The notes under the pieces are model-generated. The model was not told the DNA's origin, searched no databases, and was given only the letters and a program-made list of their open reading frames with translations. Shown one piece after another: positions 32,279 through 60,189 of a DNA stretch of 64,000 nucleotides; positions within the stretch are counted from its first letter, which is position 1, and each line of letters opens with the position of its first letter. The position numbers were made by a program, and so were the translations under genes. This stretch comes from Terriglobia bacterium. GTDB lineage: Bacteria; Acidobacteriota; Terriglobia; Terriglobales; Acidobacteriaceae. The stretch covers positions 5,431-69,430 of the forward strand of contig JAIQFF010000006.1 in the NCBI GenBank assembly GCA_020073395.1, written 5' to 3'.

Positions 32279-34183
32279 CTAAGGGCTTTGACTGGCGACG
32301 GTGCCGTTTTCTGCGTCCTGCACCCGTATTCCATTATGTTCCAAAGTGCTGCCAGTTGCACGATCAAGCTCAACTTTTGCCTTTTCGTAGATGGTCACGG
32401 CGGTGACCAAATCCAGCTCAGCGATGGCGAGGTCGCGCTGGGCGGTCATGGTCTGGAAAGTCGATCCCGCCCCCAGCGTTTGCTCTTTCTGCATGATCTC
32501 GAAAGTACGCTGCGCCAGGTCCCGCGCCTTGCGCGCGGCGCCAACCCGCGCCCCAGTCTGCTCCAACGCATATTGCGCGTTCCGGACCTCAATCCGAATC
32601 TGCTTTTTCAATTGCTCACGGCGGAGTTCGGCCTGCCGGTATTCCAGCTCGGAGCGGTACTGATCTGCCTTGGCCACGCGATTGCGGATGGGGATATTAA
32701 GACTCAGTCCAATGTAGTAGTCAGGGGAGGAATTGTTGAAGGCATTGGAGAGCGCTCCCGAGTAATCTGTGGGCACGTTGGAAGAATTCGGAGTGGGAAG
32801 GTTGTAGATCGGATTCAGCGGTCCGGCCAATCCCGATCCTCCGTAGAAACCAACCAGGGCCAGCGACGGTAACAACGCATTGCGCGCCGCTTTCCCACTG
32901 ATCTGCCGGTTCACCAGATCAACATCAGATTCGGCAAGTTCAGGGCGCTCGCGCAATGCCTGGGCGATGAGGTCCTGGACCGCTTCCGTGGCCTGGGTTT
33001 CGACAGTCTCGAAGTGGTCCACAGGAACAACTGGCACAGCTTCAAGCACGGGATCATCAAGACTTTTGGTCAGCGCATTCTTGATGAGCAGCTCCTGCAG
33101 TTGCAGGCTGGTGCGAGCCACGGTCAAGTCCTGATCGCGCTTTGACACTTCAGCCTCGGCGCGCATCACGTCCATGGCAGGAATACTGTCAAGCTGAAGC
33201 TGTTTCCTGGCATTGTCCAGCGATTGCTGGGCAAACGCCAGCGACTGCTCGTTGACCCGCGCCTGCTCGTAGGCGTTTACCAGGTCCCAATAAATGTTCT
33301 TGATCTGGGTGATGGTCGCGGTCACCTGATCCTTAAACGCGATGTCAGAGATCTTCTTGTTGTTCTTGGCGATGGTCAGATAGCGCAGGTTGGGCCCAAA
33401 GCCGAATCCCGCCAGCAGCTGCTGCTGGAAGGAGAAGCGGTACATGGAATTCAGGACAGGTGACAGGTTGAAGAACGGGCTGTTGGTCGTCTGGCGGCTG
33501 TTGTTGAACTCGACGGTAAAACTGGTGCCGGTCGGAAAAGCCTGCGAGTAAGTGACGCTGGCCTGTCCGGTGTTCGATTGCAGCGAGGGCACGCCGTAGA
33601 TCTGCTGATTGGCCAAAGGCGTAGTCTGGTGCTCCGCGCCAACCGAGGCCACGATCGCAGGATCGTACGAGGCGACTGCTGTGCCGGCGCCGAGTGTCGA
33701 TTGCACCAATCCGGACGCGCCTGCGCCCGCACCACCAGCGCCGCCGGTCGTGCCGCCCGCGCCAGCTCCGGGAGCTCCAGTGCCGAAGCCGCCGACGCCG
33801 CCACCGGGAGTTCCCTGTACTACGCCAGCATTGACGCCGCGAAAAATTCCGCCGGCACGGGTGCGCAAGATGTCCATGTTCGCGATGGGAAGATTGTAAC
33901 GCGCGATGGCCAGGTCAAGATTGTTCTCGAGCGCCAGCCGGATGGCATCCTTGAGAGACAAGTACAGCTTGCCGTCGCGGATCAACTGATCAAGCAACGG
34001 AGAATTTGCGAGGTCTGGACGCGGAACGCGGTCCGCCGAATACGCGCTAAACGGATTGTGCGATGCCTGCATGTCATAACGCACAGACGCGTTGGTCTGT
34101 CCCGAAGCCGTCGCGGTCAGGGCGACCAGGAACCATGCCACACATCGCGCCAGAAAGTTGGGCCGGGAAGCAATAGCTTTCAT
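32279..34183 (-). CDS. TolC-family outer-membrane channel with a Gly-rich insertion
   Basis: Signal peptide, LSLKDAIRLALENNLDLAIARYN (OEP-family N-terminal motif) and a two-repeat coiled layout. The insert is GTPGGGVGGFGTGAPGAGAGGTTGGAGGAGAGASG. Confidence 0.85.
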   Translation of the reverse strand: MKAIASRPNFLARCVAWFLVALTATASGQTNASVRYDMQASHNPFSAYSADRVPRPDLANSPLLDQLIRDGKLYLSLKDAIRLALENNLDLAIARYNLPIANMDILRTRAGGIFRGVNAGVVQGTPGGGVGGFGTGAPGAGAGGTTGGAGGAGAGASGLVQSTLGAGTAVASYDPAIVASVGAEHQTTPLANQQIYGVPSLQSNTGQASVTYSQAFPTGTSFTVEFNNSRQTTNSPFFNLSPVLNSMYRFSFQQQLLAGFGFGPNLRYLTIAKNNKKISDIAFKDQVTATITQIKNIYWDLVNAYEQARVNEQSLAFAQQSLDNARKQLQLDSIPAMDVMRAEAEVSKRDQDLTVARTSLQLQELLIKNALTKSLDDPVLEAVPVVPVDHFETVETQATEAVQDLIAQALRERPELAESDVDLVNRQISGKAARNALLPSLALVGFYGGSGLAGPLNPIYNLPTPNSSNVPTDYSGALSNAFNNSSPDYYIGLSLNIPIRNRVAKADQYRSELEYRQAELRREQLKKQIRIEVRNAQYALEQTGARVGAARKARDLAQRTFEIMQKEQTLGAGSTFQTMTAQRDLAIAELDLVTAVTIYEKAKVELDRATGSTLEHNGIRVQDAENGTVASQSP

Positions 34184-34887
34184 TGCTTCACCGCCTCATA
34201 GGGCTGTAAATCCGGGTTTGCCGTGTCGCCCACCATCCAGCCATCGCGCAATTGGATGGTGCGAGAGCCGTAGGCCGCGTTTGCTTCCGAGTGGGTCACC
34301 TGAACGATCGTGGTTCCTTGCTGGTTGAGCTCGCGAAAGAGTTCCATAATTTCCTTGGCCTGCGAGGAGTGCAGGTTTCCCGTGGGCTCGTCGGCCAGCA
34401 AAAGCGCGGGCTTGTGTATGACAGCACGAGCCACTCCTACGAGCTGCTGCTGCCCTCCGGAAAGCTGGCTGGGAAACAAATCCTTTTTGGCAACAATCTG
34501 GAAGCGGTCCAGCGTGTCGGCCACCAGGCCCTGCCGCTGCCCGCTGGGGACGTCTTTATAAGAGAGTGGCAGGTCGATGTTCTCGCGCACGGTCAGATCG
34601 TCGAGCAAGTGATAACTCTGGAAGACCATCCCGATGTTGCGTTTGGCGAGTTCGCCACGCTGCTTGCGTTTCATGTCATGAACAGCTTGGTCGCGAAACC
34701 AGTACTCGCCTAACCACTGATCATCGAGCAAGGCAAGCACGTTGAGCAGCGAAGACTTCCCTGCTCCGGACGGCCCCATGAAAGTAACGAACTCGCCCTG
34801 GCGAATCTCCAGCTTGATGCGGCGTAGGACCCAGGTTTGTCCGGCTGCGGTTTTGTAACTGCGTTCGACATTTTTCAATTGGATCAT
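34180..34887 (-). CDS. ABC ATP-binding protein, MacB/LolD-type NBD
   Basis: Walker A GPSGAGKSSLL, signature LSGGQQQLVGVARA, Walker [12 protein letters not shown]. It overlaps the TolC start by 4 nt. Confidence 0.9.
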   Translation of the reverse strand: MIQLKNVERSYKTAAGQTWVLRRIKLEIRQGEFVTFMGPSGAGKSSLLNVLALLDDQWLGEYWFRDQAVHDMKRKQRGELAKRNIGMVFQSYHLLDDLTVRENIDLPLSYKDVPSGQRQGLVADTLDRFQIVAKKDLFPSQLSGGQQQLVGVARAVIHKPALLLADEPTGNLHSSQAKEIMELFRELNQQGTTIVQVTHSEANAAYGSRTIQLRDGWMVGDTANPDLQPYEAVKQ

Positions 34888-34913
34888 TTGGTTTCTACTC
34901 TGGTAATAATTTC

Positions 34914-37469
34914 TTATTCGTAGTGCAACGCGATGTTCGGATCAGTTTGCATGGCCCGCCGGGCCGGGATGTAGCATGCAAGCAGCGCCACGGCAATCAA
35001 CCCGAACGCGGCCGCTGCTATGGTCGTGGGGTCGGACGGCTTTACTCCGAACAGAAAGCTTTGCAAATAGCGGGTCACGGCCAACACTGCGATGAAGCCA
35101 ACCAGCACGCCTGACCCTGAAATCAATGCACCCTGCCGGATCACGAGACGAAGGACATCGCCGCGCTGCGCCCCTAGAGCCAGTCGAATTCCGATCTCTC
35201 GAGTTCGCATGGAAACCTGATAAGAGAGCAATCCGTAGATTCCTACACACGTAACGATCAACGCCAAAACCGCGAACAGGGTCGAAAGATTGGCGATGAG
35301 CTGCTCCTGATAAATGTTCTGGTCGATCTGCTCCGCCTGGGTTTTCATGCCGGTGACTAGAAGATTGCTATCAAAACGGGTTACAGCGTCGCGAATTCCC
35401 GGCATCATTGCCTTCGAGTCCATCGCGGTGCGGACCTCGAAGTAGAAATCCGCATCCCAATTGCCAATTGAGTTGTAAATGGTTGGTTGGATTTCGTCGC
35501 GTACATTAGCGTACTTGGTGTCAGCCACCACGCCGACAATTTCGTCCTCAGGTCCATCCTCATTCTCCCGAAAATGGCTTCCCAGTGGATTTTCCGCTCC
35601 AAATAATCGGCGCGCCAAAGCCTGGTTCACAACGACGCGCGTCGGGACGCTGTTAGAGGGAGGCCCGGAATCCTGCGCACTTAACGTGCGGCCTTCGAGT
35701 AGACGAATGCCCATCGTTTGAAAGAAATTGCCAGCTACCGGAAGTACACCAACGTGGATGGGTCGGCCTGATTGATCTTTGGAAAAAATCTCACCGCCCA
35801 TACCCCCGCCGCTCAAAAGTAAAACTCCCGAGCGGCTGGCTGAAATGACACCCGGAAGAGACGAGAGTCGACCCTGAACGTCGCTATAGAGAGTCTGGAG
35901 GTTTTCCCCCGAACGCTTGCTATAACTGGCGTCAACCTGGAAGACGACGAGGTTTTGAGGATCGAAGCCGATGTTTTCGGCTTTCAAATTGGACAAGGTG
36001 CGCACCAACAACGTCGTCCCCGCAAGAACCAACATGGCGAGCGCCACCTGAACAACAACTAGCGCGCTACCCAGAGAAATCGGGCGTCCGGGTGTACCAG
36101 GCGCTGTCCCCGAGGTTTGTTTGAGTGCAGGAATCAACTCGGGCCGCTTACTGGAAGACGCGGGTGCAAGGCCAAAAGCGATACCGGTAAGAATGGAAAC
36201 CAGTGCGGTAAAGACAAGCACGTGAGCATCGGGACGGACGTCCACCTTCACCGGCAGGTACCAGTTATGCGATAGAAACCCTGCGAGAGCGCTAGCGCCA
36301 AGGTCACCGAGGAGAATTCCAATGGCCCCTCCCGCAACCGACAGAAGCACACTTTCCGTGAGCAACTGGCGGAGGATTCTTCCCCAAGTCGCCCCGAGCG
36401 CAACACGCATCGCCAACTCTTTTTGTCGCGCTTTCGAACGCGCGAGCGTCAGCCCTGCAATGTTGGCGCAAGAGATGAGCAGGACCAGAGCCACCGCAGC
36501 GAACAGCGCAAAAAGGGGCTGAGAGAAATTCTGGCGTAATGTGACCAATCCATGTGCAGAACTTGAGAGTGTGACTCGCGGCGAATCATCGGGTCTGAAC
36601 ATGGCGTCTGGACCATTGGTCGTGGCGGCAGCAAACAGGACGCTGGCGGCTGAAGCAGACTGCATAATACTTATGCCGGGCCTCAGTCGCGCCATCAATT
36701 CGACCCATAAAGCCTTTGCATCCGTCTTCTTCGGCAGACGCGGCTCGACTGCAGCCTGAAAGGCCATGGGCAGCCAGATGTCGGACGGGAGGCCAGGATC
36801 AAGTTCGGGGAAGTCCCCACCGGTGATGCCGATCACCGTGAACAATGTCTTACCCACTAAAACGTCTTTGCCCAGGACAGAGGGATCTTGGCCTAGTTCG
36901 TTCTGCCAAAAACGGTGGCTGACGGCAATGGCAGGCTTAGCCGTATCCGAATCGTCGGTGGGAGCGATGAGGCGGCCAAGTGCCGGATGTGCGCCCAGTA
37001 CAGAGAAGAAATTGCCGGAGACAAGTAGAACCCGCGCATGGCTAGTCTTACCGCCAGAATTCACGGCGAGCTCTGCGGGAAGCGGAACAAACGCTACGAC
37101 ACTTGAAAAAGTGCTGGATTTCTCTTGAAGCTCTTGGAACAGCGGAAAGGAAAATGAGCACCCGTCGGGTTCGAGCGGTGCTTGAGAAATAAGCGCCCGT
37201 CCGTTCCAAAAGCCTCCCCCGTGGGTGCAATTGTCATACGCGAGGGAAGCGGTCGTGTCTGGGATTCGGCGCGCTTTCCATTTCAGGAGCACGAGGCTCT
37301 GCGGATTTTTGATCGGCAGCGTGCGCAGCATGATTGAGTTAATCAGGCTGAAGATGGCAGTATTTGCCCCGATTCCTAGCGCCAGAGTTACGACCGCCAC
37401 GGCGGTAAACACCGGAATCTTGCGCAATTGGCGCACCGCGTAGCGTAGATCTTGAATTAGTACATTCAT
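34914..37469 (-). CDS. ADOP-family permease (duplicated MacB_PCD + FtsX modules), copy 1
   Basis: I moved the start to [40 protein letters not shown]. About 850 aa with two periplasmic-domain/FtsX repeats and a C-terminus ...DPNIALHYE. Confidence 0.9.
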   Translation of the reverse strand: MNVLIQDLRYAVRQLRKIPVFTAVAVVTLALGIGANTAIFSLINSIMLRTLPIKNPQSLVLLKWKARRIPDTTASLAYDNCTHGGGFWNGRALISQAPLEPDGCSFSFPLFQELQEKSSTFSSVVAFVPLPAELAVNSGGKTSHARVLLVSGNFFSVLGAHPALGRLIAPTDDSDTAKPAIAVSHRFWQNELGQDPSVLGKDVLVGKTLFTVIGITGGDFPELDPGLPSDIWLPMAFQAAVEPRLPKKTDAKALWVELMARLRPGISIMQSASAASVLFAAATTNGPDAMFRPDDSPRVTLSSSAHGLVTLRQNFSQPLFALFAAVALVLLISCANIAGLTLARSKARQKELAMRVALGATWGRILRQLLTESVLLSVAGGAIGILLGDLGASALAGFLSHNWYLPVKVDVRPDAHVLVFTALVSILTGIAFGLAPASSSKRPELIPALKQTSGTAPGTPGRPISLGSALVVVQVALAMLVLAGTTLLVRTLSNLKAENIGFDPQNLVVFQVDASYSKRSGENLQTLYSDVQGRLSSLPGVISASRSGVLLLSGGGMGGEIFSKDQSGRPIHVGVLPVAGNFFQTMGIRLLEGRTLSAQDSGPPSNSVPTRVVVNQALARRLFGAENPLGSHFRENEDGPEDEIVGVVADTKYANVRDEIQPTIYNSIGNWDADFYFEVRTAMDSKAMMPGIRDAVTRFDSNLLVTGMKTQAEQIDQNIYQEQLIANLSTLFAVLALIVTCVGIYGLLSYQVSMRTREIGIRLALGAQRGDVLRLVIRQGALISGSGVLVGFIAVLAVTRYLQSFLFGVKPSDPTTIAAAAFGLIAVALLACYIPARRAMQTDPNIALHYE

Positions 37470-37473
37470 GTTC

Positions 37474-39906
37474 CTACTCGTACCGCAGCGCGACCATGGG
37501 GTCGACATTCATCGCCCAACGTGCTGGGATGTAAGCAGCCAGTGCTGCTACCAAAGCCAGTAGAGACGTGAGCAAAGCGAATGTCACAACGTCGATCTGC
37601 ACCACGCCAAAGAGCGCACCTGAAAGCGCGCGGGTCAGCAGCAATGCGAGTACTAAGCCGATGCTGAGACCGATCATGGCCATTTTCAGCGCTCCTCCAA
37701 CCACCAGCCTGAGCACGTCAAGACGCCGCGCTCCCAGCGCTACGCGCACTCCGATTTCGTGAGTTCGTTGGGTGACGGAATAGGCCATCACGGCGAAGAT
37801 CCCGGCCGCCGCCAGCGTGAGCGCGCAGGCAGCAAAAATCAGCATCATATTGGCGGACGACTCGATGCCGCTGAGGCCGTCGGAAACAACCTGCTCCAGG
37901 CTGCGCATGTCATACGCGGGTTGGTCCGCATCCACATCGCGCAATTGCTTGCTGACAGAGCCCGCAAGCGTCAAGGGATCTCCCGACGTGCGCACCACGA
38001 ACGCCGTAGCGGATTCGGGCTGTTGCGCGAACGGAATGTATGCGGTCGGAGCGGGGTCATGGTCTAAGGGAACCGGCTGCACCTCCCCCACTACTCCTAC
38101 AATCGTGCGTAATGGCTGAGCAGCTTCCGGCCGTCCCATCTGGATATGCTTTCCTAGCGGGTTCTGATCCGGCCAATTCTGATGCGCCATCGTCTCACTG
38201 ATGACCGCCACCGGAGGAGCATTAGGTCCGTCCTGATCGGAAAGGAGCCGTCCTTGCCGCAGCGGAACACGCAATGCTGGGAAAAGGCCTGGAGTCACGA
38301 TTTGCGAAATGACTGATGGCCTTTCTCCCGGGGCTGCTGGGGGCCTGCCCTCCGCCGTGAATTCCGTCCAGTTCCATGTCCATCCCGAAGGCAGGCTGGT
38401 CACACACGCCGCAGATTCGACACCCGGCAGGGCCTGAATATTTCGCAGGACCTGTTCGTAGTAACCACGGATGCGATCTTTGTCGCGGTACTTCGCATCC
38501 GGTAACACGACATGAAAGGTAAGAACATGGTTGCGATCAAAGCCCATGTCCTTGGTTGTGAGAGTACGGAATCCCTTCACCATCAAGCCGGCGCCCACGA
38601 GTAGAACCAAAGAAAGGGCGATTTCTGAGATCACCAGCAAAGTACGAAGGCGCCGCCCGCTGGCACTAGCACTCCCACCACGGGTGCCCTCTTTCAGGGT
38701 GTCATTCACGTTAGGACGTGAAAAATGCCAGGCCGGTGCCAGCCCGGCGACGATGCCGGTCACAATGGCCAAGAGCAGTGTGAACCAGAACACTCGCAAA
38801 TCCAGATGCAGGTGTTTCAACCCCGCAACGTGCTCGACGATAAAGGGGGGAAGACTGCGACGCAAAAGGTTGATGCCCCAGGCCGACAACAGAAGTGCTG
38901 CCGCGCTGCCGAGCAGTGCGAGCAGAAGGCTCTCCACCAGCAGCTGCCGTCCCACCTGCCAGCGGCTGGCCCCGAGCGCGGCGCGAAGAGCGATCTCCTT
39001 TTGTCGCCCGGAAGCGCGGGCCAGTTGCAGGTTGGCCACGTTGGCACAGGCCAGCAGGAGAACGAAGACCGCCGCTCCCATCAGCATCATAAGAAATTGT
39101 TGCGAACCGTAGGTGACATCTTCCACCGTATTCTTGACATTGACTCCGTGGCCGGCGTTGGTCCTGGGATGCTGTTGGCCCAGGCTGGCGGCAATCGTCT
39201 CCAGTTTCGCCTGGGCTTGAGATATGGAAACGCTATCCTTCAGCCGTCCAAACACGGTTAAATAGTGGCTCTCGCGGTCTTCTTTGGCGGGGCCGTTCAG
39301 GTCGAGCGGAGTCCAGACCTTCGATCCGGTGGGGAAATCAAAATCTGGAGACGTGATGCCAATGACCGTGAACTTTCGGCCGTTCAAGAGCAATTGCCTG
39401 CCGACTAGTGCAGGATCAGCGCCCAAATGCTGCTGCCAGAATCCGTTGCTGATGACCACCACGGGCGCAACCCCGCCCTGGAAATCTGCGCTCCCGATAT
39501 TGCGGCCCAGTTGTGGAGACATGCCCAGCAACGAAAAGAAGTCGGCAGTTACCTGCGAACCTTCGACATGCTCGGCCACATTGCCGCCAGTCAAATTCGC
39601 GTCCCATCCGCGGACCGCCGCCAGCTGGCTGAATTGCGTGCTCTGCTCGCTCCAGTCGCGAAAATTCGCGGGAGCCGGACTCAGGTGGTTGTCATTCTGC
39701 CTGGGCAGCGTCTCCCAGATTGTGACCATGCGATCCAGACGCGGGAATGGAAACGGCCGCAGCAGCATGGCATTGACCGAATTGAAAATGGTTGTATTTG
39801 CGCCGATACCGAGGGCCAGAGTAATCACTGCCACCGCGGTAAAGCCGGGGCGCTTGCGCAACATGCGGAGCCCGTAACGAACATCCTGCAGCAGTCCAGT
39901 CATCAT
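37474..39906 (-). CDS. ADOP-family permease, copy 2
   Basis: N-terminus [42 protein letters not shown]-terminus ...[10 protein letters not shown]. The stop lies 4 nt before the start of copy 1. Confidence 0.9.
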   Translation of the reverse strand: MMTGLLQDVRYGLRMLRKRPGFTAVAVITLALGIGANTTIFNSVNAMLLRPFPFPRLDRMVTIWETLPRQNDNHLSPAPANFRDWSEQSTQFSQLAAVRGWDANLTGGNVAEHVEGSQVTADFFSLLGMSPQLGRNIGSADFQGGVAPVVVISNGFWQQHLGADPALVGRQLLLNGRKFTVIGITSPDFDFPTGSKVWTPLDLNGPAKEDRESHYLTVFGRLKDSVSISQAQAKLETIAASLGQQHPRTNAGHGVNVKNTVEDVTYGSQQFLMMLMGAAVFVLLLACANVANLQLARASGRQKEIALRAALGASRWQVGRQLLVESLLLALLGSAAALLLSAWGINLLRRSLPPFIVEHVAGLKHLHLDLRVFWFTLLLAIVTGIVAGLAPAWHFSRPNVNDTLKEGTRGGSASASGRRLRTLLVISEIALSLVLLVGAGLMVKGFRTLTTKDMGFDRNHVLTFHVVLPDAKYRDKDRIRGYYEQVLRNIQALPGVESAACVTSLPSGWTWNWTEFTAEGRPPAAPGERPSVISQIVTPGLFPALRVPLRQGRLLSDQDGPNAPPVAVISETMAHQNWPDQNPLGKHIQMGRPEAAQPLRTIVGVVGEVQPVPLDHDPAPTAYIPFAQQPESATAFVVRTSGDPLTLAGSVSKQLRDVDADQPAYDMRSLEQVVSDGLSGIESSANMMLIFAACALTLAAAGIFAVMAYSVTQRTHEIGVRVALGARRLDVLRLVVGGALKMAMIGLSIGLVLALLLTRALSGALFGVVQIDVVTFALLTSLLALVAALAAYIPARWAMNVDPMVALRYE

Positions 39907-39913
39907 TTATTCC

Positions 39914-42343
39914 TCACTCGTAACGCAGAGCCACCATGGGATCGACCTTGGTCGCGCGATAGGCCGGAATGTAACTGGCCATCATCGCGGCCATGAAAAG
40001 CACGACGCACACCCCCGTGAAAGTTGCGGCATCCGTGGGAGCCACGCCAAATAGCAAACTTGCGATCAGCCGCGCAGTGATCAAACCACCCACGATTCCC
40101 AATGCAATTCCGATCAGGGCCAGTTTCAGGCCGCTGTTGACTACCATCTTCAGCAAGTCGCCGCGCTGCGCTCCCAAAGCCATGCGCAAACCCAGCTCGC
40201 GCGAGCGCTCCGCCACGCTGTAGGCCAGAACTCCATAGAGTCCCAATACTGCAAGCAACAGCGCCAAGGCGGAAAATCCGCCGATGAGGTATGCGGGATA
40301 CGACCGCACCAGCATGGTGGGCGAGGTCGAAATGATCTGCGCCATGCTGCTAATTTGGAAAACGGGAGCCTGGGGTTCGAGTTCGTGGATGGATCGAGTG
40401 ACTGCGGCAACTAGTGAACCCGGTTCTTTCCTGGTGCGGATAGCCAGGCTAAAATATGGGTAAGGATCCTGTTCGTAGCAGTCATACACGATGGGTGTCG
40501 GCGGAGCATCCAGGCCGGTAACATTTTCATTGCCCACCACGCCGACGATCTGGACGTAGTGGGGCTCATTCGTGTAGGTGAAGTTGATGCGCTTGCCGAT
40601 CGGATCCTGGTGGGGAAAAACCATGTCCGCCATGGCCTGGTTGACGATTACCACGTGGACCGACTTGTCACGATCCTGCGAATTGAAGAACCGCCCGGCG
40701 CGCAACGGAATGCCCATCACCGAAAAGTAGTTTTGCGTGACCGTGGGAGTATTGGCTTCGTATTCCTGGCCGCCGCTGCTCTTGGGATGTCCCTCCAAGT
40801 CAAAACGAGACGTATTGCCTTTGGCGGACATGGGCACAGTCGTCACTGCCGCCGCTTGTTCGACACCGGGAAGGCTCCTGATTCTGTCCAATAGTTGTTG
40901 CTGGAGGGCCAGCTGTCTGGGTCCGTCTGGATACTTGTTGCCGGGGAGCGCCACTACGCCGGTGAGCAAATTGCGAGTGTCAAATCCGGGATCGGTGTTC
41001 AGCACTCGGTGCAAACTCTTGAGCATCAAACCTGCGCCCACCAGCAGCACTACCGCCAAGGCCATCTCCGAAACCACCAGCACGCTGCGCAGGCGGTGGG
41101 TGGAACCAACTGAACCGCGGCCCGCGGCCTGAAGTTCGTGTTGCAGGTCGGGGCGGAAAGTCTGCAGCAGCGGAGCCAATCCGAACAAGATCCCCGTTAG
41201 CAACGAAATTCCTAGCGCAAACCAAAGCGCACCGCTATGCACTTTGAGTCCCTGAAGCGGCGGCGTGCTCAGCAGGATGTCCGGCGGAAGCAGCGAAAGC
41301 ACAGCCGGCACCGCCCAGTAGGCGGCGAGAACCCCTGCACTGCCTCCCATGAGGGCGAGCAATACACTCTCCGTCAGCAGTTGCCGGGCTATGCGATTCG
41401 ATCGGGCGCCCAGCGCCAAACGAATGGAAATTTCTTTTCTGCGAGGCTGGGACCGCGCCAGCAGGAGTCCGGCCACATTTGCGCAGGTGATGAGCAGCAC
41501 GAATCCGATCGCGGCCATCAATACGACCAGTACCGGCTGCACCTGGCCGACAATCTGCCATCGCAGGTCAACCAACTCTGTGCTCATGCCGGCATTCGAG
41601 TCCGGATACTGCATGGCCAATCGCCGCGAAAGAGTCTGTATCTCGGCTTGCGCCTGCCGAAGGCTCACGCCTGGCTTGAGACGAGCCACGGGATGCAACC
41701 AATAAGCGTTTCGCCTTAAAAAAAATCCGGATATCCGGGGTGACATCCATAAATCCGCCGACTGCGTGGGAGCAAGAGCAAAATTCTTTGGCAGCACCCC
41801 CACTACAGTGGCCGGTTCACCATCGAGTGCCAGCGCCGTGCCGACTACGCCTGGGTTGCCGCCAAATCGCCGCTGCCAGGCGCCGTAGCTCAGCATGACA
41901 GGAAAGTTCTTCTGCAGCTCATCTTCACCGGCCCCGAAAGTTCGCCCTAGAATGGGCTGAACTCCCAAAGTTTCAAAGAAACCAGTGGTCGCCACGGCCA
42001 CCTGGAGTTGTTCAGCACCGTCTTTGCCCGAGAGCGTCACGCTGTTTCGCGAATAGCCGCCGATCTGCGAGAAGACTTTGTTCTCCCGTTTCACATCCAG
42101 ATAATCGGGATAAGAGAACTCCGACTGCTGGAACGAACCCTCGGTGCGCTTCTCCCATATCTGCACCAACTCCTCCGGCCTCTCGTACCCCAGCGGGCGC
42201 AACAGGATGGCATCGAAGACCGTAAATACTGCCGTGGTGGCACCGATTCCCATAGTCAACATGATCAGGATGATCACCGTCAGACCGGGACTCTTCCGCA
42301 ACATGCGTAAGCCATAGGTGAGATCCTGCATCAGAGTTTGCAT
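39914..42343 (-). CDS. ADOP-family permease, copy 3
   Basis: N-terminus MQTLMQDLTYGLRMLRKSPGLT, C-terminus ...[10 protein letters not shown]. Confidence 0.9.
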   Translation of the reverse strand: MQTLMQDLTYGLRMLRKSPGLTVIILIMLTMGIGATTAVFTVFDAILLRPLGYERPEELVQIWEKRTEGSFQQSEFSYPDYLDVKRENKVFSQIGGYSRNSVTLSGKDGAEQLQVAVATTGFFETLGVQPILGRTFGAGEDELQKNFPVMLSYGAWQRRFGGNPGVVGTALALDGEPATVVGVLPKNFALAPTQSADLWMSPRISGFFLRRNAYWLHPVARLKPGVSLRQAQAEIQTLSRRLAMQYPDSNAGMSTELVDLRWQIVGQVQPVLVVLMAAIGFVLLITCANVAGLLLARSQPRRKEISIRLALGARSNRIARQLLTESVLLALMGGSAGVLAAYWAVPAVLSLLPPDILLSTPPLQGLKVHSGALWFALGISLLTGILFGLAPLLQTFRPDLQHELQAAGRGSVGSTHRLRSVLVVSEMALAVVLLVGAGLMLKSLHRVLNTDPGFDTRNLLTGVVALPGNKYPDGPRQLALQQQLLDRIRSLPGVEQAAAVTTVPMSAKGNTSRFDLEGHPKSSGGQEYEANTPTVTQNYFSVMGIPLRAGRFFNSQDRDKSVHVVIVNQAMADMVFPHQDPIGKRINFTYTNEPHYVQIVGVVGNENVTGLDAPPTPIVYDCYEQDPYPYFSLAIRTRKEPGSLVAAVTRSIHELEPQAPVFQISSMAQIISTSPTMLVRSYPAYLIGGFSALALLLAVLGLYGVLAYSVAERSRELGLRMALGAQRGDLLKMVVNSGLKLALIGIALGIVGGLITARLIASLLFGVAPTDAATFTGVCVVLFMAAMMASYIPAYRATKVDPMVALRYE

Positions 42344-42351
42344 AGTTCTCC

Positions 42352-44806
42352 TTACTCGTATCTCAAGGCCACCATGGGATCAACCTTCGCCGCGCGACGC
42401 GCGGGAATGTAGCTGGCAAGCAAGGCCACAGCCAGAAGCAAGAGTGCGGCCTCGGTCAGTGTGGCTGGGTCATTTGGCTTTATTCCAAACAGCAGCGCGC
42501 CAATCCATCGAGCAGCAACCAGCGAACAGAAAGTGCCGGCGACAGCGCCGCCGGCAATCCATACCAGCGTCTGGAACACCATGACTCTGGTGACAGTAGC
42601 CGGGTTCGCGCCCAGCGCCAGACGAATGGCAATTTCCCGGATGCGCTGGCTCACCAGCAAGGAAACCAGGCCGAAGATACCCACTGCCGCGAGAAGCAGG
42701 CCGATCGCGGCAAATAGCGAAAGCAGAGCAGCCGTAAATCGGGGACGCTCCGCGAGCCGATACACGGTTTGACCCAGGGTGCTTGACTCCAGGGGCAACG
42801 TCGGGTCAAGCGCCGCGACGGAGTCTCGTATTTCTTTGGCTACCGTCTGGGGATCAATTGCACTGCGTACCACCATGCTGATGCGCTGAGAGTCTAGATA
42901 ATTGAAGATGCGGTCGTTCGCGCTGTGACTGCGAACTAGGTAATATTCGGGACCTATGTGTCCGCCGAGCCCCTGATTTTGCGTGTTGGCAGTCACACCT
43001 ACGATTCTGAACGTGGCAGCGTCGCGCACTTCGTCGGAACTAAAGTGGATGGTCTTGCCCACCGGGTCCTGGCCGGGAAAGAGGCGTTGAGCCAGGGCTT
43101 GGTTAAGGATCATGGCGTCATACGCTGAGGTGCGGTCCTGTTCCTCAAAGGCCCGTCCGCGCAGCAGAGGAATGCCCAGTACCGAGAAATATTTCGGCGT
43201 CACAGATCTCCAACTCACGATTCCACCAATGCCCTGGTCAGGGCTGAGAGGCGGTTGCCCTTCCGCTTCGAGCGCAACCAACGGCATCGTGCGCGCCGGG
43301 GTCTCAGGGGGGAGCGAGTCACTGAGGGCAGCCGCCGCGACACCGGGCAATTGCTGGAGTTTGTTCCAGTTGCTCGAAGAATGCAAGGCGCTGTGCCGGT
43401 TGAGCATATTTTTCCTGCCCAAGCGTGATCGCCGCCGTAACAATATTTTGCGTATTCATCCCCAACGGCTGGACCTCGAGGTTGCGAAGAGTCCGCAGGA
43501 ACAGCAGCGCACCCGTAACCAGAATAAGAGTCATGCAAACCTGAGCAGCCATCAGAGCCTTTCGCAGGTTGCTTCGCCGTGTGCCGGCCACAGTCATGGC
43601 CACCAGAGCTTCCGGGCGTGGCTTTTCCAGCGCGGGTAAAGTGCCAAAAACAACTCCGGCAGCGCTCGACGACAGAAGCGCGAAGATCAGGGCCCTGACG
43701 TTTACCATCGCCTCCGGCAAGCGTGGTATTCCTGCCGGGGAAAGAGCGACGAAGCCATGAACAATCAGGTAAGCAAGCCCACATCCGATTGCGCCTCCAA
43801 CCAGTGCGAGCAGCATGCTTTCTGTGAGCCTTTGCTGAAACAGGCGAAGGCGGGCGGCGCCGAGCGCAGACCGGACCGCAAGCTCGTGTCGCCGCCCCGT
43901 GCTGCGGGCAAATACGAGGTTGGCCACATTGGCGCAGGCGATTAGCAGGCCCGCAAGGGCCGAGACCAGCAGGAACCAGGCCGCGCGACGGGAGTCATGA
44001 ATCTGCAAATCGCGTATGGAGCGGACCTGAAGCCGCAGTTCTTTTCGAAACGGAGGCGGCGCGGATTCCACAAAGGTCCGAAACAAAAGCGGCAACTGCG
44101 CTACCGCCGCGTCGATGCTGACGCCTGGTTTCAGGCGTCCGTACACGCGGACCGTCGGTCCCATCAAATTACGTTGCACAATGGATTCATCGAGGGCCTC
44201 GGGCACGACCAGCCCTGTACCGGCCAGCGTCGGAAATTCAAAGTCACGCGGCAACACTCCCAAGACCCGTGTTGGCTTTCCATCAACCGAAATCGTGCGA
44301 TCAACAATGCCGCGATCGCCTCCAAACCGGCTTTGCCATATTCCATACGAGAGCAATGCGACTTTGGGAGAATCGGGGCGATCCTCTTCCGGCGTGAAGT
44401 TCCGGCCCAGGATGGGTTGCACACCGAAGGTAGACAGGAAGGTGGACGCTACGGACGCGCAGCTTGATCGGACGGGGCGGTCATCGGTGAGATCACAATC
44501 GTTCACGCCAGTGGACGACGTGAAGTTCGCGAACGGAGTTTGATCGCGCCTCCACGACAGATAATTCGCCGCAAAGAGAAACTCGCCGTCAATAATAGGA
44601 GCGATGACTCCGACGGAAACCAACTGCTCAGCGTGGGGATAGCGCAAGCCGCGGAAGAGCGCGCCGTCCACCAAACTGAACATCGCAGTAGTTGCGCCGA
44701 TCCCTAGCGACAATGTGAACACGGCGACCGAAGTGAATCCCGGGCTCTTGCGCAGTTGCCGCAGAGCGTAGCGAATGTCCTGGAGCAGGCCGGTCATCCT
44801 GTTCAT
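42352..44806 (-). pseudogene. ADOP-family permease, copy 4, interrupted by a frameshift near 43360
   Basis: The N-terminal ORF (44806-43319, [22 protein letters not shown]...AFFEQLEQ) and the C-terminal ORF (43443-42352, ...LQQLPGVAAAAL...[10 protein letters not shown]) together cover one ADOP gene in two frames. The frames cross at GAACAAACTCCAG (plus-strand TTT at 43360-43362). Confidence 0.75.
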
Positions 44807-44813
44807 CTCCTCC

Positions 44814-47234
44814 TTACTCGTACCTCAGAGCGACCATGGGGTCGACCTTGGCTGCGCGACGTGCCGGGATATAGCTCGCTGCTATCGCGACTCCACTGAG
44901 CACGACCACCACCGCAGCAAACGTTGCCGGGTCAGTAGGCCGTGTGCCGTACAGCAGGCCCACCATAAGGCGGCTTAGCGCCAAAGCTCCGGCCAGTCCC
45001 ACGGCGACTCCGGCCAGCGCTTGAACTATTCCCTGGAAGACCACCAGTTTGAGCACATCTCGTCCTTGCGCCCCTAGCGCCATGCGGACGCCGATCTCGT
45101 GGGTCCGCCGGGAGACCGAATAGCTCATGACACCGTAGATCCCTACTCCCGCCAGGACCAGCGCTACCGTGGCAAACGCGCCCAGCAGAACCATGTAGAA
45201 CCGCGACTGTCCTGTGGCTTCAGCGACCACGTGGTCCATGGTCTGGATTTCGGACAGCGGAATGTTGGTGTCGAGCGAGTGAATTGCTCCTCGGATGGCT
45301 GGGGCCAAGGCGGCGGGATCAAGGCCGGTTCGTACCACCAGGGTCAAGTAGGCAAATGGCGGCGATGGCATGTCGAGATACGCGCGGTTCTGCAGATAAG
45401 GCAGAAATACTTCCTCTTCGGGCGGACTCACCCAATTGCTGCGGGCGGTGTTCTTCGCCACACCCACTACGGTGAGCCACGAGGGATTTCTCGCCGGATC
45501 GTCAAACGTGATTCTCTTGCCGATCGCATCTTCGCCGGGCCAATAGCGACGGGCGATATAGTCGTTGACTATCACCACTCCCGGCGCGCGTAAATCGTCG
45601 GCATCGGTGAGGTCACGGCCGCGCAGAATCGGGATGCTCATGGTCCGAAAGTAGCCGGGAAAGACCGCGCGGTAGGTGGCAACCAGGTCTCTCCCCGGAG
45701 GCTCCGGCGGCCGGCCCTCGATGTGAAACGGGAAACCCCATTCGTCGCCCGCCAGGGGCAGATGATTGATGCCGCTGACTGATTGAACCCCGGGCACGAC
45801 ACTGACTTTCTGCAGCACTTCCTGATAGAAATTGCCGGTATGGCCAGCGGCCGCCTGCTCCGTACCCGCAACGCCAACCACCAGCGACAACACGCCGTGG
45901 GGATCGAAACCTGGATCCACGTGCTGCAATGCGAGGAAGGTGCGAACCATCAGCCCCGCGCCAGCCAGCAACATTACTGCCAGCGCAAATTCGGAGCCCA
46001 CCAGCAGACCGCGCAGGCGGTGCAGTCCTTGGCTGGACCCGCGTTTACCTTCTTTCAATGCGTCACTGAGGTTGACTGAAGTCGCTCTCCAGGCCGGAGC
46101 CATACCGAAAGCCAGCCCGGTGAATAAGGAAATGACTAGCGCGAACAGCAGCACGTGGCCATCCACCCCCACGGTCTCCACTCTGGGTATGGCGGCTGGA
46201 CTGAGCGCCAGCAGAACGCGAACGCCCCACACTGCAAGCAGCAAACCGGCGCCCCCGCCCAACAGGGCGAGCGCCATGCTTTCGGTCAGGAGCTGGCCGA
46301 ACACATCCCAGCGTCCCGCCCCCAGGGCGGTGCGCAGCGCAATCTCTTCGCGCCGGGCGGCCGCGCGTGCCAGCAACATGTGGCTGACGTTGGCGCAAGC
46401 AATCAGCAGCACGAAGCCCACGGCTCCAAGCAGCACAAGCAACGCGGGACGGATGTTTCCCACGACTTTCTCGCGCAGCGATAGAACCTGCATGTCCTGG
46501 TTGGTGCCGGGGAACTCGCGCTCCAGACGGCCGGTAATGCCCGCCATTTCAGCCTGGGCTTGCTCCAGAGTGACGCCAGGCTTCAGCCGTGCAAATACGC
46601 GTAGCGAGCCGCCCCCGCGATCGGTAAGGCGTGAACCGAGCGCCAGGGGTGCCCAAAGCTGTGCCGTCGCCCAAAAAGGAGCGAACCTGAATTCCCGCGG
46701 CATCACCCCGATCACCGCATATTTCTCACCGCTGAGCGCCACCGACCGGCCGATGACGTCGGGGCTTCCGGCAAAATGGCTCTGCCAGAGGGAGTAGCTC
46801 AACACCACTTCATGTTCTTTGCCGGCCTCTTGTTCTTCCGGCAGGAACACGCGCCCCAACAAGGGTTGGACTCCCAGCATTGGGAGAATCTCTGGAGTGA
46901 TGTGCAACGCCCACAATTTCTCGGGATTGTCAGTGCCGGTCAGGTTCGCAGTCCAGTACTCCGCCGCCCCCATGTGCGAGAAAACCTGGCTCTGACTCCG
47001 CCAGTCGATGAAATTCGCCGGGGACACGGGATTGCGCCCCTTGTTGAGAATTACCACCAGCCGGCTGTCATCTTTATATGGAAGCGGTCGCAGCAAGACG
47101 GCATTGACCACGCTGAAAATGGCTGTGTTCGCGCCGATCCCCAGCGCCAGTGTGATGACCGCCACCGCAGCAAACCCAGGGCTCTTTCGCAGGGCGCGGA
47201 TGGTGTAGCGCAGGTTCTGAAGCAGAGTTTCCAT
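44814..47234 (-). CDS. ADOP-family permease, copy 5
   Basis: I moved the start to [40 protein letters not shown] (ATG at 47234). C-terminus ...[10 protein letters not shown]. Confidence 0.9.
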   Translation of the reverse strand: METLLQNLRYTIRALRKSPGFAAVAVITLALGIGANTAIFSVVNAVLLRPLPYKDDSRLVVILNKGRNPVSPANFIDWRSQSQVFSHMGAAEYWTANLTGTDNPEKLWALHITPEILPMLGVQPLLGRVFLPEEQEAGKEHEVVLSYSLWQSHFAGSPDVIGRSVALSGEKYAVIGVMPREFRFAPFWATAQLWAPLALGSRLTDRGGGSLRVFARLKPGVTLEQAQAEMAGITGRLEREFPGTNQDMQVLSLREKVVGNIRPALLVLLGAVGFVLLIACANVSHMLLARAAARREEIALRTALGAGRWDVFGQLLTESMALALLGGGAGLLLAVWGVRVLLALSPAAIPRVETVGVDGHVLLFALVISLFTGLAFGMAPAWRATSVNLSDALKEGKRGSSQGLHRLRGLLVGSEFALAVMLLAGAGLMVRTFLALQHVDPGFDPHGVLSLVVGVAGTEQAAAGHTGNFYQEVLQKVSVVPGVQSVSGINHLPLAGDEWGFPFHIEGRPPEPPGRDLVATYRAVFPGYFRTMSIPILRGRDLTDADDLRAPGVVIVNDYIARRYWPGEDAIGKRITFDDPARNPSWLTVVGVAKNTARSNWVSPPEEEVFLPYLQNRAYLDMPSPPFAYLTLVVRTGLDPAALAPAIRGAIHSLDTNIPLSEIQTMDHVVAEATGQSRFYMVLLGAFATVALVLAGVGIYGVMSYSVSRRTHEIGVRMALGAQGRDVLKLVVFQGIVQALAGVAVGLAGALALSRLMVGLLYGTRPTDPATFAAVVVVLSGVAIAASYIPARRAAKVDPMVALRYE

Positions 47235-47239
47235 GTTCC

Positions 47240-49687
47240 TCACTCGTAGCGCAACGCCACCATGGGATCGACTCTGGCTGCGCGGCGTGCCGGGACATAT
47301 GCCGCAAGCAGAGCTATCGCAATCATCGCCACAGTGCCGGAGGCGATCGGGACGGCGCTTCTTATCTGCAGCTCGGGCACCAGGCTTGCGGCAAACCTCT
47401 CGCTCCAGAACGCGATAGGCGCTCCTACCGCCGAACCGATACAAACCATGCCCAGCGCGTCTCTGATCACCATCCAGGTCGCGTTACTTTGAGTTGCGCC
47501 CAGTGCCATGCGAATCCCGATCTCGTTGATGCGTCGCGCCACCGTGTACGTCAGCAGTCCATAGAGGCCGATGGCCGCAAGCAGCGCCCCCAGCACGCCG
47601 AACCACAGGGAGAGCGTCGCCATGAGCCGCTCTGGAACGATGGACGCATTCACCTGGTCGGTGAGCGTCGTGATGCTCTTTACGGAGACTGTCTTCAGCA
47701 TGTCGCGCACCACGCGCCGGACATCGGGAGCCACCGCCTCGGGGTCAACACCGGTCCGCAGCGCAAATCGCGAATCCACCGAAGGTTCCTGGAAAGTGTT
47801 GAGGTAGATGGTGCGCCACGTAGCTTCGCGCATTTCCATGTACTTCGCATCACCGGCAACGCCAACAATCTGGTATGGCTGGCCGTCACCGTCGAAAGTG
47901 ACATGTCTCCCGATGGGATCGCGGCTGCCGAAATAGTAGCGGGCCATGGTCTGATTGATGATCGCCACGCGTGGCCCACCCTTGTCCCCGAAGCTGAAGT
48001 CGCGCCCCATCAGCAACGGTGTGCCGACGGTTGCAAAATATTTCGGTGCGACCCAGCTCTCCATGACGTTGCGGATTTCTCCCGGCTTGGCCTCGTAGCC
48101 TTCTACCGTGACGCCGCGATTTGCTCCCGCTCCCGAGATCGGAGATGGGGCGCAGATTGTGGCCGAGCGCACGCCCGGGATCGCCTCCAGGTGTTGCAGC
48201 AAATCCTGATACGCGAGTGACAAGTGTTCGTCGTTATATCCACTGCCTTCGGGATCAAGAGTCACGAGCAGAACGTGGTCGGGGTGGAAGCCCAAATCGA
48301 GATGGCGGAGATTCAACAAGTGGCGAACAAACAGCCCGGCCGCGCTCAATAGCACAACCGACAAAGCCACCTGGGCAACCACCAGGGTCTTTCCGAACAA
48401 CCGGCGGGGCCTGGTCTCACTGGTACCGCCCGCTTGCCGGAGGGAGGATGCCGGGGCGGTCCTCATGGCCCGCAGAGCGGGAACCAGTCCAGATAGCAAT
48501 ATGGTCAACAAGGTGATTGCCGCTGTGAAAAGCAGCACGTGCATATCGGCCCGGACATGGAACTCGAGAGGCGGCCCCGGCCGTCGTTCCGCAACGATGA
48601 TTTTGGCTAAGACTCCGGCGCCGAAATACGCCACGTAAACGCCCAGCAGACTGCCGACTGCGGAAAGCAGCAAAGACTCGGTCAGCACCTGCCGCGCCAG
48701 GCGAAAGTGACCGGCCCCCAAAGAGAGGCGCAACGCCATTTCGTGTTCCCGGGTTGCCCCGCGCGCCAGCAGCATGCTGGCCAGATTGGTGCACGCAATC
48801 AGCAGCAGCAGGCCCACAACGGCCAACAGCAGCAGCAGTGGCTTGGCCCATTCCTCGCGCAGCTGCGAGAGGCCGGCACCCGCGGGCTCCATCTCAAGTT
48901 TCATCTTGCGAATAAATGGATTGTTGGTGGCCTTGGCCTGCTCCTCGAGAGTCGACTCGTATAACACCGCCGTCTCTGCTTGCGCCTGATTGATGGAGAC
49001 GCCGGGTTTCAACCTGCCCACCAACCACAACGATCCCCACCCGAGGCCGGAGCGAACAACGGTCGGCTGCATGGCCAGAGGCAGCCAGACGTCCTGGCGA
49101 GACTCCACCTGCAATCCGGAAAACTTGCGCGGCGCCACTCCGACAATCGTCACCAGCATATCTTCCACGATGATTTGCTTGCCCAGCATTGCCGGGTCGA
49201 GATTGAACCTGCTTTTCCAGTAGGACCAACTCACCACAGCTACTGCGGAAGGATCACCGGTGCGGTCATCCTCTGGACCGATCAGCCTGCCGATCGCAGG
49301 TTGCATCCCGAGGACAGGAAAAAAGTTTCGGTCAACATATCCGCCTTGCAGCGTTTGTGGTTCCAGACCTTCGCCGCGCACGTGGAAGGGTTGATAAGCA
49401 GCGGCGATCAAACCCGAGAACACATGATTGTGGTCGCGCATGAGCTGGTAGGCCTGCGGGGAGAAGCCATTCAGATGCGGCTCACCCGGATACCTGTGCA
49501 GGAGTTCGACCAGTTGCTCCGGTTCCCGCACTGGCAGCATGCGTAGCATGAGAGTATTGACCAGGCTGAAGATTGCCGTGTTGGCGCCGATTCCCAATGC
49601 CAGCGTCAGCACGGCGACCGCAGTGAACCCAAGGTTCTTCCGGAGTTGCCGCAGGGCGTACCGGAGATCTTGGATCAGGCCGTTCAT
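47240..49687 (-). CDS. ADOP-family permease, copy 6
   Basis: N-terminus [41 protein letters not shown]-terminus ...[10 protein letters not shown]. The start overlaps the ATPase stop (ATGA). Confidence 0.9.
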
Positions 49688-50409
49688 GCATGCACGTCCG
49701 CCATCAATTTCTTCAGTTCTTCCTCCGCCACCACTTTCCCGTCGAACAAATGCACTTCACGTTCGGCATGCTTGGCAAAGCGCGGATCGTGCGTGACCAT
49801 ACAGATGGTTGCACCCTCGCGGTGCAGGTTCTGGAGCAACTCCATCACGGCCTCGCCGTTGCGGGAATCCAGATTTCCCGTGGGCTCATCAGCCAGCAGA
49901 ATGGAGGGCTTTCCTCCCAGCGCGCGCGCCACGGCCACGCGCTGCTGCTGGCCGCCGGAGAGTTGCGAGGGATAATGTCGCACGCGGTGCGCCATGCCTA
50001 CGCGCTCCAGCGCCTCCATCACGCGTTTCTTGCGCTCGACCGCGGGCATCTTCTGCCTGTAGGTCAGCGGCAGTTCAACGTTTTCGTAAACCGTGAGGTC
50101 GCCAATCAGATTGAAACTCTGGAAGATGAACCCTATCTCCTGATTGCGAATGCGCGAGCGCTCGGCAAAGCCCAGATTCTCCACGGGCTGGCTGTTCAGC
50201 TGGTAGCGGCCCCCGGTCGGCGTATCGAGCAGGCCGATGATCGAAAGCAGGGTGGACTTGCCGCATCCCGAAGGACCCGACATGGCTACGTACTCGCCCT
50301 TGCGGATCGCCAGGTGGACGCCGGAAAGCGCGTGGGTTTCAACTTCGTCGGTGTAAAACACTTTGGTGAGATCTTCAATCTGGATCAGCGCTTGTCCTGT
50401 TTCAGTCAT
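49684..50409 (-). CDS. ABC ATP-binding protein, MacB/LolD-type NBD
   Basis: I moved the start to [19 protein letters not shown] (ATG at 50409). Walker [12 protein letters not shown], signature [14 protein letters not shown], Walker [13 protein letters not shown]. Confidence 0.9.
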
Positions 50410-51724: not shown

Positions 51725-52084
51725 TCCATCTCCTCGCAACTTTCAATCCATTCGACACCCGCCGGTAAGTGTCTGCGAGAACAGGGAAATACGGGCAGCC
51801 CTGCGACCTGGAACGACGCTGATTTGTCCGCTAGCGAACTTGACTGTCCATTTGCGAACACCAAAAGCGACAGCCTTCGCTGTCCGATCTCCCGGCACGG
51901 TTCAGTCAAAGCTGAGAACTGGGAACTCGTATCTGGTAACTAGGCAAGCTGAGAAACCGCGTCGCCCGGCAATCGTTTAAACATTCCGTCCCGCGAGAGA
52001 GTGGAGCAGAGTATGAAACCAGCCCGGGGTAATCAAGTCAATCTGAGGGGCTTCAGTGGCCACGCCTTTGTCCCGTTGCGCCAG

Positions 52085-60067: not shown

Positions 60068-60189
60068 GTGAGTCTCGCTTGAAAAAAAAGCTAGCTGGTC
60101 CCGTACGCCAAAGCAATTCAGATACCACCGTCGAGGTTTGTTAAGTTGCTCATTCTGTTAAGAAGGCCGCCTACAGCGCGAGGAGCGGA

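Follow-up and report, generated by a model that had tools for sequence, protein, structure and literature searches.

A 64,000-nucleotide window (the whole stretch analyzed) from contig JAIQFF010000006.1 of a 5.5-Mb, 94% complete metagenome-assembled genome (MAG) of a Terriglobia acidobacterium contains ten copies, one of them frameshifted, of the acidobacterial duplicated orphan permease (ADOP, TIGR03434), out of a genome total of about 13-14. ADOPs have been labelled "orphan, function unknown" since 2009, and the expanded name used in the original prediction for this locus is the one found in published papers. We found six of the ten copies in a tightly packed 22-kb row on the minus strand, which consists of a periplasmic adaptor, an ATP-binding cassette (ABC) ATPase (nucleotide-binding domain 1, NBD1), the six ADOPs including the frameshifted one, a second ATPase (NBD2), a TolC-like duct, a response regulator and a histidine kinase (Table 1). 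Judging from its sequence, the region 51860-29446 is likely to be one sigma-54-dependent operon for a MacAB-TolC-like (type VII ABC) tripartite efflux machine with unusual parts, the engine of which probably also serves ADOPs in trans. Comparison of sequences, domains and folds shows every part of such a pump to be present and the chassis to be conserved. The features that distinguish it from MacAB-TolC and others of the type VII kind are a fused permease with eight transmembrane (TM) helices, two paralogous ATPases, many permeases per chassis, and sigma-54 control. Family assignments throughout are based on NCBIfam and Pfam profile searches; the cut-offs above which a gene counts as an orthologue were chosen by eye, at gaps in the scores.

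The genes of the row are closely joined to one another. The original prediction had one ATPase gene overlapping the first ADOP by 4 nt and a second lying 26 nt after the last, and both placements proved exact when checked against the open reading frame (ORF) list and the start codons: the TGA of NBD1 and the ATG of ADOP1 (49687) overlap in ATGA, and 26 nt separate the end of ADOP6 (34914) from the start of NBD2. It had missed the adaptor, TolC-like and two-component genes, which turn the array into a complete tripartite pump operon. A second ATGA overlap couples the TolC-like gene to NBD2, and neighboring ADOP genes are separated by gaps of 5-9 nt along the row. At the junctions within 37470-47239 (minus strand), the last residues of the ADOPs are ...RYE, and a Shine-Dalgarno sequence follows directly on the stop codon (TACGAGTRAGGA), with 5-9 nt to the next ATG; this arrangement of RYE, stop and Shine-Dalgarno sequence is a conserved coupling junction.

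The same gene order recurs in five other genomes of the genus, where the NBD genes enclose at least five ADOPs, some of them in pieces in draft assemblies; in one complete genome, G003, five intact ADOPs lie between them. Neighboring NBD genes were surveyed at 80 ADOP loci from other species with flanks of up to 10 kb, a sample biased towards relatives of ADOP1. Nearly all of these loci come from Acidobacteriota; at 84% identity, a Terriglobia MAG is the closest relative in public data. An NBD gene was chained to ADOPs in 12 of the 80 loci, leaving 68 without one. Six of these 12 loci have the whole operon order with two to five ADOPs each, and in L089 and L091 the two NBD genes adjoin each other. 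The operon is also found in a second family of the order, where G010 (37 ADOPs) has the genes for an upstream ADOP, adaptor, NBD1, TolC-like protein, NBD2, regulator and kinase. In G012, of the same family, the operon has no permease gene and is composed of adaptor, NBD1, NBD2, TolC-like gene and regulator, all 16 ADOPs of this genome being located elsewhere. These operon comparisons identify the chassis (adaptor, two ATPases, duct and regulator) as the constant unit and ADOP content as the variable one, with none to about eight ADOPs between the NBD genes among related genomes. Since the order recurs in the genus, in 12 of 80 loci and in a second family, the adjacency of ADOPs and ATPases is not due to chance.

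One could still suppose that an ADOP array has been inserted into a decayed MacAB-type operon and does not use these ATPases. ADOPs without an NBD are indeed common: the 46 loci with both flanks visible comprise 34 solitary ADOPs, eight arrays without an NBD and four loci with one. Such an insertion would, however, have to be squared with an order kept across genera and families, with intact frames and translational coupling, with an ATPase clade tied to the presence of ADOPs (see below), and with the finding that no operon seen contains an FtsX permease gene other than ADOP. We therefore regard it as very improbable. A related possibility, in which NBD2 and the TolC-like gene are part of a distinct downstream module that has a permease of its own, was rejected because no non-ADOP FtsX gene was found in the operons seen.

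Both ATPases belong to PF00005 and are of the MacB/LolD/DarD type, with DarD, LolD, MacB and FtsE as the best NCBIfam matches, and the Walker A, Q-loop, signature, Walker B and H-loop motifs are intact in both. In a maximum-likelihood tree, NBD1 and NBD2 fall into two clades (support 100/97 and 100/100, respectively) that are sisters to each other (97/94); the remaining MacB-type ATPases of the source genome fall outside them. Mean identity within the NBD1 clade is 76%, and NBD1 is 73-78% identical to the NBD1 of another family. NBD2 sits on a long stem branch and has clade-wide substitutions, with the catalytic motifs retained: the D-loop reads GNLH (for GNLD) and the signature region LSGGQQQL (for LSGGQQQR). 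Among 101 genomes of the class, each at least 90% complete, 67 carry one or two NBD1 orthologues (at least 68% identity), and 55 have an NBD2 orthologue, mostly in single copy and usually on the contig of NBD1. In most genomes that have both, the two genes share a contig and are 0.03-21 kb apart, a spacing that corresponds to zero to about eight ADOP-sized genes in between (confirmed as ADOPs only in the subset of genomes scanned for them). By phylogeny and gene position, NBD1 and NBD2 form an ATPase clade dedicated to these operons.

The distribution of NBD1 follows that of ADOP. At least one ADOP above the curated cut-off is present in all 20 tested class genomes that carry an NBD1 orthologue, and 18 of 20 tested genomes without NBD1 have none. 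Some of the NBD1 genomes contain 90 to at least 130 candidate ADOPs (counts in copy-rich genomes are lower bounds) versus one or two NBD1 genes. Concordant contrasts were also found within genera g1 (G006 versus the rest), g6 and g37, so the co-occurrence pattern does not reflect a single ancient split. Adjacency between ADOP and NBD genes, which the original prediction held to occur essentially never, is rare when counted per gene (12 of the 80 loci, and four of the 46 for which both flanks could be seen) and frequent when counted per genome, about two-thirds of the sampled class genomes having NBD1. The "orphan" label is therefore fair for most copies and wrong for the family: it fails for the copies in the operon, and it holds for 68 of the 80 loci and for the copies on contigs C181 and C117 of the source genome. 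No ATPase gene lies within 3 kb of the genome's ADOPs outside the window (contigs C181, C117 and C119, and a copy truncated by the start of contig C279).

The nine intact ADOPs of the window score 762.7-996 bits on TIGR03434 (819-996 bits for the five in the operon), all above the curated cut-off of 622.3 bits, and Pfam finds two MacB_PCD and two FtsX stretches per chain, an internal duplication. The eight intact window ADOPs that we aligned are only 28-42% identical to one another, indicating that the array is old or was assembled from divergent copies and did not arise by recent duplication. ADOP1 was modelled with AlphaFold2 from an alignment of 37 sequences (predicted local distance difference test 86, predicted template modelling score 0.79), and the model has an N-terminal cytoplasmic helix, eight TM helices (residues 19-47, 276-312, 327-367, 382-409, 426-461, 684-718, 733-769 and 778-804), two large periplasmic domains and a C-terminal helix. 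The four-TM unit of type VII transporters, in which a large periplasmic domain separates TM1 from TM2 and a coupling helix links TM2 to TM3, is found in this model, where the TM2-TM3 loop and the TM6-TM7 loop each have a short helix (314-322 and 720-728, respectively) at the position of the MacB coupling helix. In a fold search with the model, the best match was E. coli YbbP (PDB 9GE6) over the full chain (E 4e-20), followed by MacB (3e-14 to 4e-13), Spr0695, LolC/E, BceB, YtrF and HrtB; the resemblance to MacB is also seen at the sequence level. Among the eight aligned paralogues, which include the detached ADOPs of the window, fractional identity is 0.54 in the N-terminal helix, 0.52 and 0.54 in the coupling loops and 0.62 in the C-terminal tail, versus 0.26 and 0.27 in the periplasmic domains. 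Conservation in the cytoplasmic elements is about double that in the periplasmic domains, which is the pattern that would be expected if all ADOPs dock on one cytoplasmic partner while their substrate-facing heads diverge. The chain itself is asymmetric, with half-specific conserved sequence beside each coupling helix.

An alignment of adaptor upstream regions from nine genomes brought out two tandem enhancer-like palindromes and, about 100 nt downstream of them, a predicted sigma-54-type promoter. The palindromes are conserved upstream of the adaptor in the genus and at L014, L017, L069 and L075, and the promoter position is conserved across relatives. A strict search for TGGCAC-N5-TTGC upstream of the adaptor gave no hit in the source genome or in 17 relatives, the -24 element being degenerate. 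Operons of G010, G011 and G012 have the same TGTCCG-N4-CGGACA type of palindrome upstream, and in G011 and G012 the promoter is also present, about 90-110 nt downstream of it. With rpoN located on contig C293 of the source genome, all parts of a sigma-54 regulon (enhancer-binding protein, -24/-12 site, upstream enhancer and rpoN) were found, as predicted from sequence. Palindromes of the strict pattern number 22 in the whole genome and three in the window; one belongs to the operon, whose tandem partner begins with AGTTC and lies outside the strict pattern. A second, at 60211-60226, is located about 85 nt upstream of a predicted sigma-54 promoter (60113-60127) of the detached ADOP_a, and the third (55007-55022) lies in the spacer between ADOP_b and ADOP_c, for neither of which we found a clean -24/-12 site. 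Two of the 16 scattered ADOPs of G012 likewise have the palindrome, followed about 90-100 nt further on by a sigma-54-type site. Within 51719-51750 (minus strand), the GC of the predicted -12 element of the operon lies only 15 nt before the conserved adaptor ATG (MDIARP), and 14-17 nt before it in relatives; such a transcript would have almost no leader, unless translation in fact starts further downstream. PadR-type regulators were considered upstream of the lone ADOPs on C181 and C117 and dropped, as the small upstream ORFs match no NCBIfam family.

A duct and an adaptor are encoded with the transporter, and the gene set of a MacAB-TolC-type pump is present. The adaptor scores 91 bits on TIGR01730, just under the cut-off of 94.9, aligns with DarC over its full length and has HlyD-family matches. 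The regulator that is paired with the kinase is NtrC-type, not OmpR-type. Its sigma-54 contact loop (residue 246) reads GAFTDA in place of the usual GAFTGA, and the same sequence in seven of seven orthologues at other loci marks this as a family trait and not damage. As judged from hydropathy only, the kinase has two N-terminal TM helices with a loop of about eight residues between them, and with so short a loop it may sense through the transporter, as BceS does.

Comparison of sequence, domains and fold identifies ADOP as the membrane component of the machine, a single chain of two MacB-type units with eight TM helices, two periplasmic domains of the Porter/Sabre type and two coupling helices, and we propose that one NBD docks on each coupling helix. 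ATP binding and hydrolysis would then drive MacB-style mechanotransmission, and substrates from the periplasm or the outer leaflet would leave the cell by way of the adaptor and the TolC-like duct. The six divergent ADOPs of the operon may be alternative heads that differ in substrate range and compete for one engine, and ADOPs elsewhere, such as ADOP_a, may use this engine in trans. The set would be switched on by the kinase, with almost no external loop, and its NtrC-type partner through the common palindrome and the promoter of the sigma-54 type, and it may be the transporter itself that the kinase senses, as in Bce systems.

The original prediction had proposed that these NBDs are the missing partner of ADOPs and that ADOPs elsewhere borrow them in trans. 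Support for this comes from the cross-family operon, the sister NBD clades and the co-occurrence of NBD1 with ADOP; the borrowing in trans is further supported by the permease-less operon of G012 with its 16 scattered ADOPs and by the enhancer and promoter that some detached ADOPs have in common with the operon. Several observations weigh against our reading. No enhancer was found at 14 of the 16 scattered ADOPs of G012 or at the C181 and C117 copies of the source genome. Two genomes have one ADOP each and no NBD1 orthologue, and each genome encodes six to nine other MacB-type ATPases that could serve scattered ADOPs. About 14 class genomes have an NBD1 orthologue and, at the thresholds used, no NBD2, and G011, of the second family, has adaptor, NBD1, ADOP, regulator and kinase only. 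In addition, related genomes in the co-occurrence and locus samples are not independent.

Several of these points would fit an operon that powers its own ADOPs in cis only, with scattered ADOPs using other MacB-type ATPases or none: most scattered ADOPs are without the operon's enhancer and promoter signals, other ATPases are at hand in every genome, and NBD1 is missing from two genomes with ADOP. We nevertheless consider an engine that works only in cis unlikely. The operon of G012 has no permease, yet both of its NBD genes are intact and adaptor and TolC-like gene are retained, and the co-occurrence (ADOP in 20 of 20 genomes with NBD1 versus 2 of 20 without it) includes genomes rich in ADOPs with one or two NBD1 genes. 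Furthermore, all paralogues of the window, the detached ones included, have conserved cytoplasmic elements that may serve for docking, and four of the seven other MacB-type ATPases of the source genome have an FtsX-type permease gene of their own within 3 kb. The wider proposal of "one engine, many heads", in which one asymmetric NBD pair, one adaptor and one duct would be common to tens to more than 100 ADOPs in cis and in trans, with a load-reading kinase and a sigma-54 regulon that includes detached ADOPs, is put forward tentatively and somewhat short of an even chance.

Whether the pair docked on ADOP would be an NBD1-NBD2 heterodimer appears evenly balanced on the comparative evidence, and we place it no higher because of the NBD1-only systems in about 14 sampled genomes and G011. 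These systems indicate that NBD1 probably works without NBD2 in some lineages and that a heterodimer is not obligatory. It is a real, if lesser, possibility that there is no heterodimer, and that the two ATPases form homodimers for different subsets of ADOPs or NBD2 has an accessory or regulatory role. NBD1-only systems (G011, G016, G032 and others), the retention of all catalytic motifs in both proteins and the solved precedent of YbbAP, which uses a homodimer, all speak for that alternative. On the side of the NBD1-NBD2 heterodimer, both paralogues are kept, usually on one contig, in about 50 genomes, and NBD2 is single copy in nearly all. The long stem branch of NBD2 and its clade-wide exchange of the D-loop aspartate for histidine, at the dimer interface, are typical of asymmetric ABC pairs, and ADOP has its own asymmetry in the half-specific conserved flanks of the coupling helices.

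MacAB-TolC is a type VII ABC tripartite efflux pump (PDB 5NIK, 5LIL and 5GKO; reviewed in PMC5985334), and the ADOP operon resembles it in its four-TM permease unit with a large TM1-TM2 periplasmic domain and in having, within a single operon, genes for an ATPase of the MacB/LolD type, an adaptor of the HlyD/MacA type and a TolC-like duct. Mechanotransmission is presumed by analogy to proceed as in MacAB-TolC. Unlike MacB, ADOP is a single-chain tandem and not a homodimer, and its ATPase is unfused; unlike MacAB-TolC, the system has two distinct ATPase paralogues, several (here six) divergent permeases per set of adaptor, duct and ATPases, and control by a sigma-54 two-component system. The review of the MacB family describes fused double permeases with separate NBDs (YbbP and BceB) and does not mention ADOP (PMC5985334). 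The only solved full-length analogue is E. coli YbbAP(-TesA), which shares with ADOP a fused double MacB-type permease, two periplasmic domains and separate ATPases. YbbP binds two YbbA ATPases through two coupling helices and has ten TM helices (PMC12646458; PDB 9GE6-9GE8), two of them linking helices, whereas the ADOP model has eight in a direct 4+4 fusion. ADOP scores only 21.4 bits on the YbbP family model NF041854, against a cut-off of 999, and its operon differs from YbbAP, in which YbbA is a homodimer, there is no adaptor or TolC, and the transporter works with the TesA hydrolase.

There is also a likeness to the darobactin exporter DarBCD (NF038007, NF038008 and NF038010). DarD is the best named model for both ATPases (NBD1 242 bits, NBD2 236 bits), the adaptor matches DarC over its full length, and DarB is also a double-length FtsX-type permease. 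The scores are, however, far below the equivalog cut-offs (375, 700 and 450), and unlike the Dar system, which has one permease and one ATPase gene, this locus has several permeases and no darobactin biosynthesis gene. Contrary to the name of the ADOP family (TIGR03434), the operon copies have ATPases, adaptor and duct at hand and are not orphan. A cluster of ADOPs among transporters with ATP-binding regions has been mentioned in passing, and not analyzed, in Psychroflexus torquis (PMC3914696). In the literature searched, we found no published description of this operon and no analysis of ATPase partners of ADOPs, and TIGR03434 gave no papers.

Two further analogies can be drawn. Group II energy-coupling factor (ECF) transporters use one engine with many membrane modules, and the ADOP system, built from other protein families, would follow the same logic; if the "one engine, many heads" proposal is true, it would be the type VII ABC counterpart of these transporters. 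In Bce modules, a kinase almost without an external loop is encoded beside a type VII ABC transporter together with an OmpR-type regulator. The present kinase, likewise beside type VII ABC genes, may be analogous to that of BceAB-BceRS, the regulator here being NtrC-type. ADOP is among the largest paralogous families in soil Acidobacteria, with up to at least 130 candidates in the sampled genomes, and its home operon turns the "orphan" label into a testable model. This model would extend type VII ABC systems to a direct eight-TM fused permease, to probable heterodimeric ATPases and to many permeases on one tripartite engine, and it would bear on the ways in which abundant bacteria of the soil withstand a range of antimicrobials or secrete numerous products.

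A 2-nt deletion after position 43361 breaks the reading frame of ADOP3. As no nucleotide-level orthologue of ADOP3 was found in L014, G003 or G005, contigs from public metagenomes were used to resolve the frameshift. Those of three independent wetland and peat runs have an extra TC after 43361 that would restore the frame, reading through ...FFEQLEQRLQQLPGV..., and a run from the source study of the window is without it. The presence of the frame-restoring TC elsewhere and its absence from the source-study run show that this is a real strain-level deletion in an otherwise intact gene. This break fits ongoing gain and loss of ADOP heads. In the spacer between ADOP_c and ADOP_b, positions 54838-54870 (minus strand) hold a remnant of an ADOP 3' end, still translating VDPMTALRYE plus stop, which suggests a trace of a lost ADOP copy.

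Table 1. Features of the ADOP operon and the detached ADOPs, with positions in the window
Feature	Position	Strand	Characteristics
Two tandem enhancer-like palindromes, TGTTCGCAAATGGACA and AGTTCGCTAGCGGACA	51825-51860	-	Presumed activator sites, type TGTYCG-N4-YGGACA
Predicted sigma-54-type -24/-12 promoter, TGGATTGAAAGTTGC	51736-51750	-	GG-N10-GC, canonical spacing
Periplasmic adaptor (membrane fusion protein, MacA/HlyD/DarC-like)	50462-51721	-	PF13437 and PF16576; conserved start MDIARP
NBD1, MacB/LolD-type ABC ATPase	49684-50409	-	Canonical motifs; ATG start, 241 aa
ADOP1	47240-49687	-	TIGR03434 875.9 bits; translationally coupled to NBD1
ADOP2	44814-47234	-	TIGR03434 996 bits; start after stop codon/Shine-Dalgarno junction
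ADOP3, frameshifted	42352-44806	-	Two half-length TIGR03434 matches abutting at model position 482/483
ADOP4	39914-42343	-	TIGR03434 946.7 bits
ADOP5	37474-39906	-	TIGR03434 947.6 bits
ADOP6	34914-37469	-	TIGR03434 819.2 bits
NBD2, paralogous ATPase, 235 aa	34180-34887	-	42% identical to NBD1; D-loop GNLH, not GNLD
TolC-like outer-membrane factor	32279-34183	-	PF02321 140.5 bits, two OEP repeats; weak TIGR01844 match
NtrC-type sigma-54-dependent response regulator	30860-32275	-	Receiver, Sigma54_activat and HTH_8 domains
Histidine kinase, intramembrane-sensing type	29446-30870	-	HATPase_c domain and hydropathy profile
ADOP_a, detached	57632-60067	-	TIGR03434 762.7 bits; own predicted promoter and palindrome
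ADOP_b, detached, divergent from ADOP_c	55180-57585	+	TIGR03434 899 bits
ADOP_c, directly upstream of the operon promoter	52085-54622	-	TIGR03434 866.2 bits

Elsewhere in the source genome, many single-length MacB/FtsX-type permeases of about 420-450 aa, often paired, have no ATPase gene within 3 kb (contigs C95, C96, C125, C271, C285, C290, C294 and C297), which indicates that "orphan" permeases here are not limited to ADOPs. The neighborhood of the ADOP operon is rich in envelope transport genes. Adjoining it (17611-25130, plus strand, and 25617-28391, minus strand) are a resistance-nodulation-division efflux set, comprising an adaptor, a 1038-aa AcrB-family pump and a second ORF of 1043 aa, and a CbiM-type cobalt ECF transporter. 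Two ORFs on the plus strand, of 707 aa (12411-14534) and 303 aa (15886-16797), have no Pfam match and lie near a large TonB-dependent-like outer-membrane barrel gene (9058-12411). At the other end of the window, a gene at 60877-61923 (plus strand) encodes a free-standing KdpD sensor-domain protein and overlaps in another frame with the next gene (61614-63998, plus strand), in which a KdpD N-terminal domain is joined to CBS and MgtE magnesium-channel domains in an unusual fusion.

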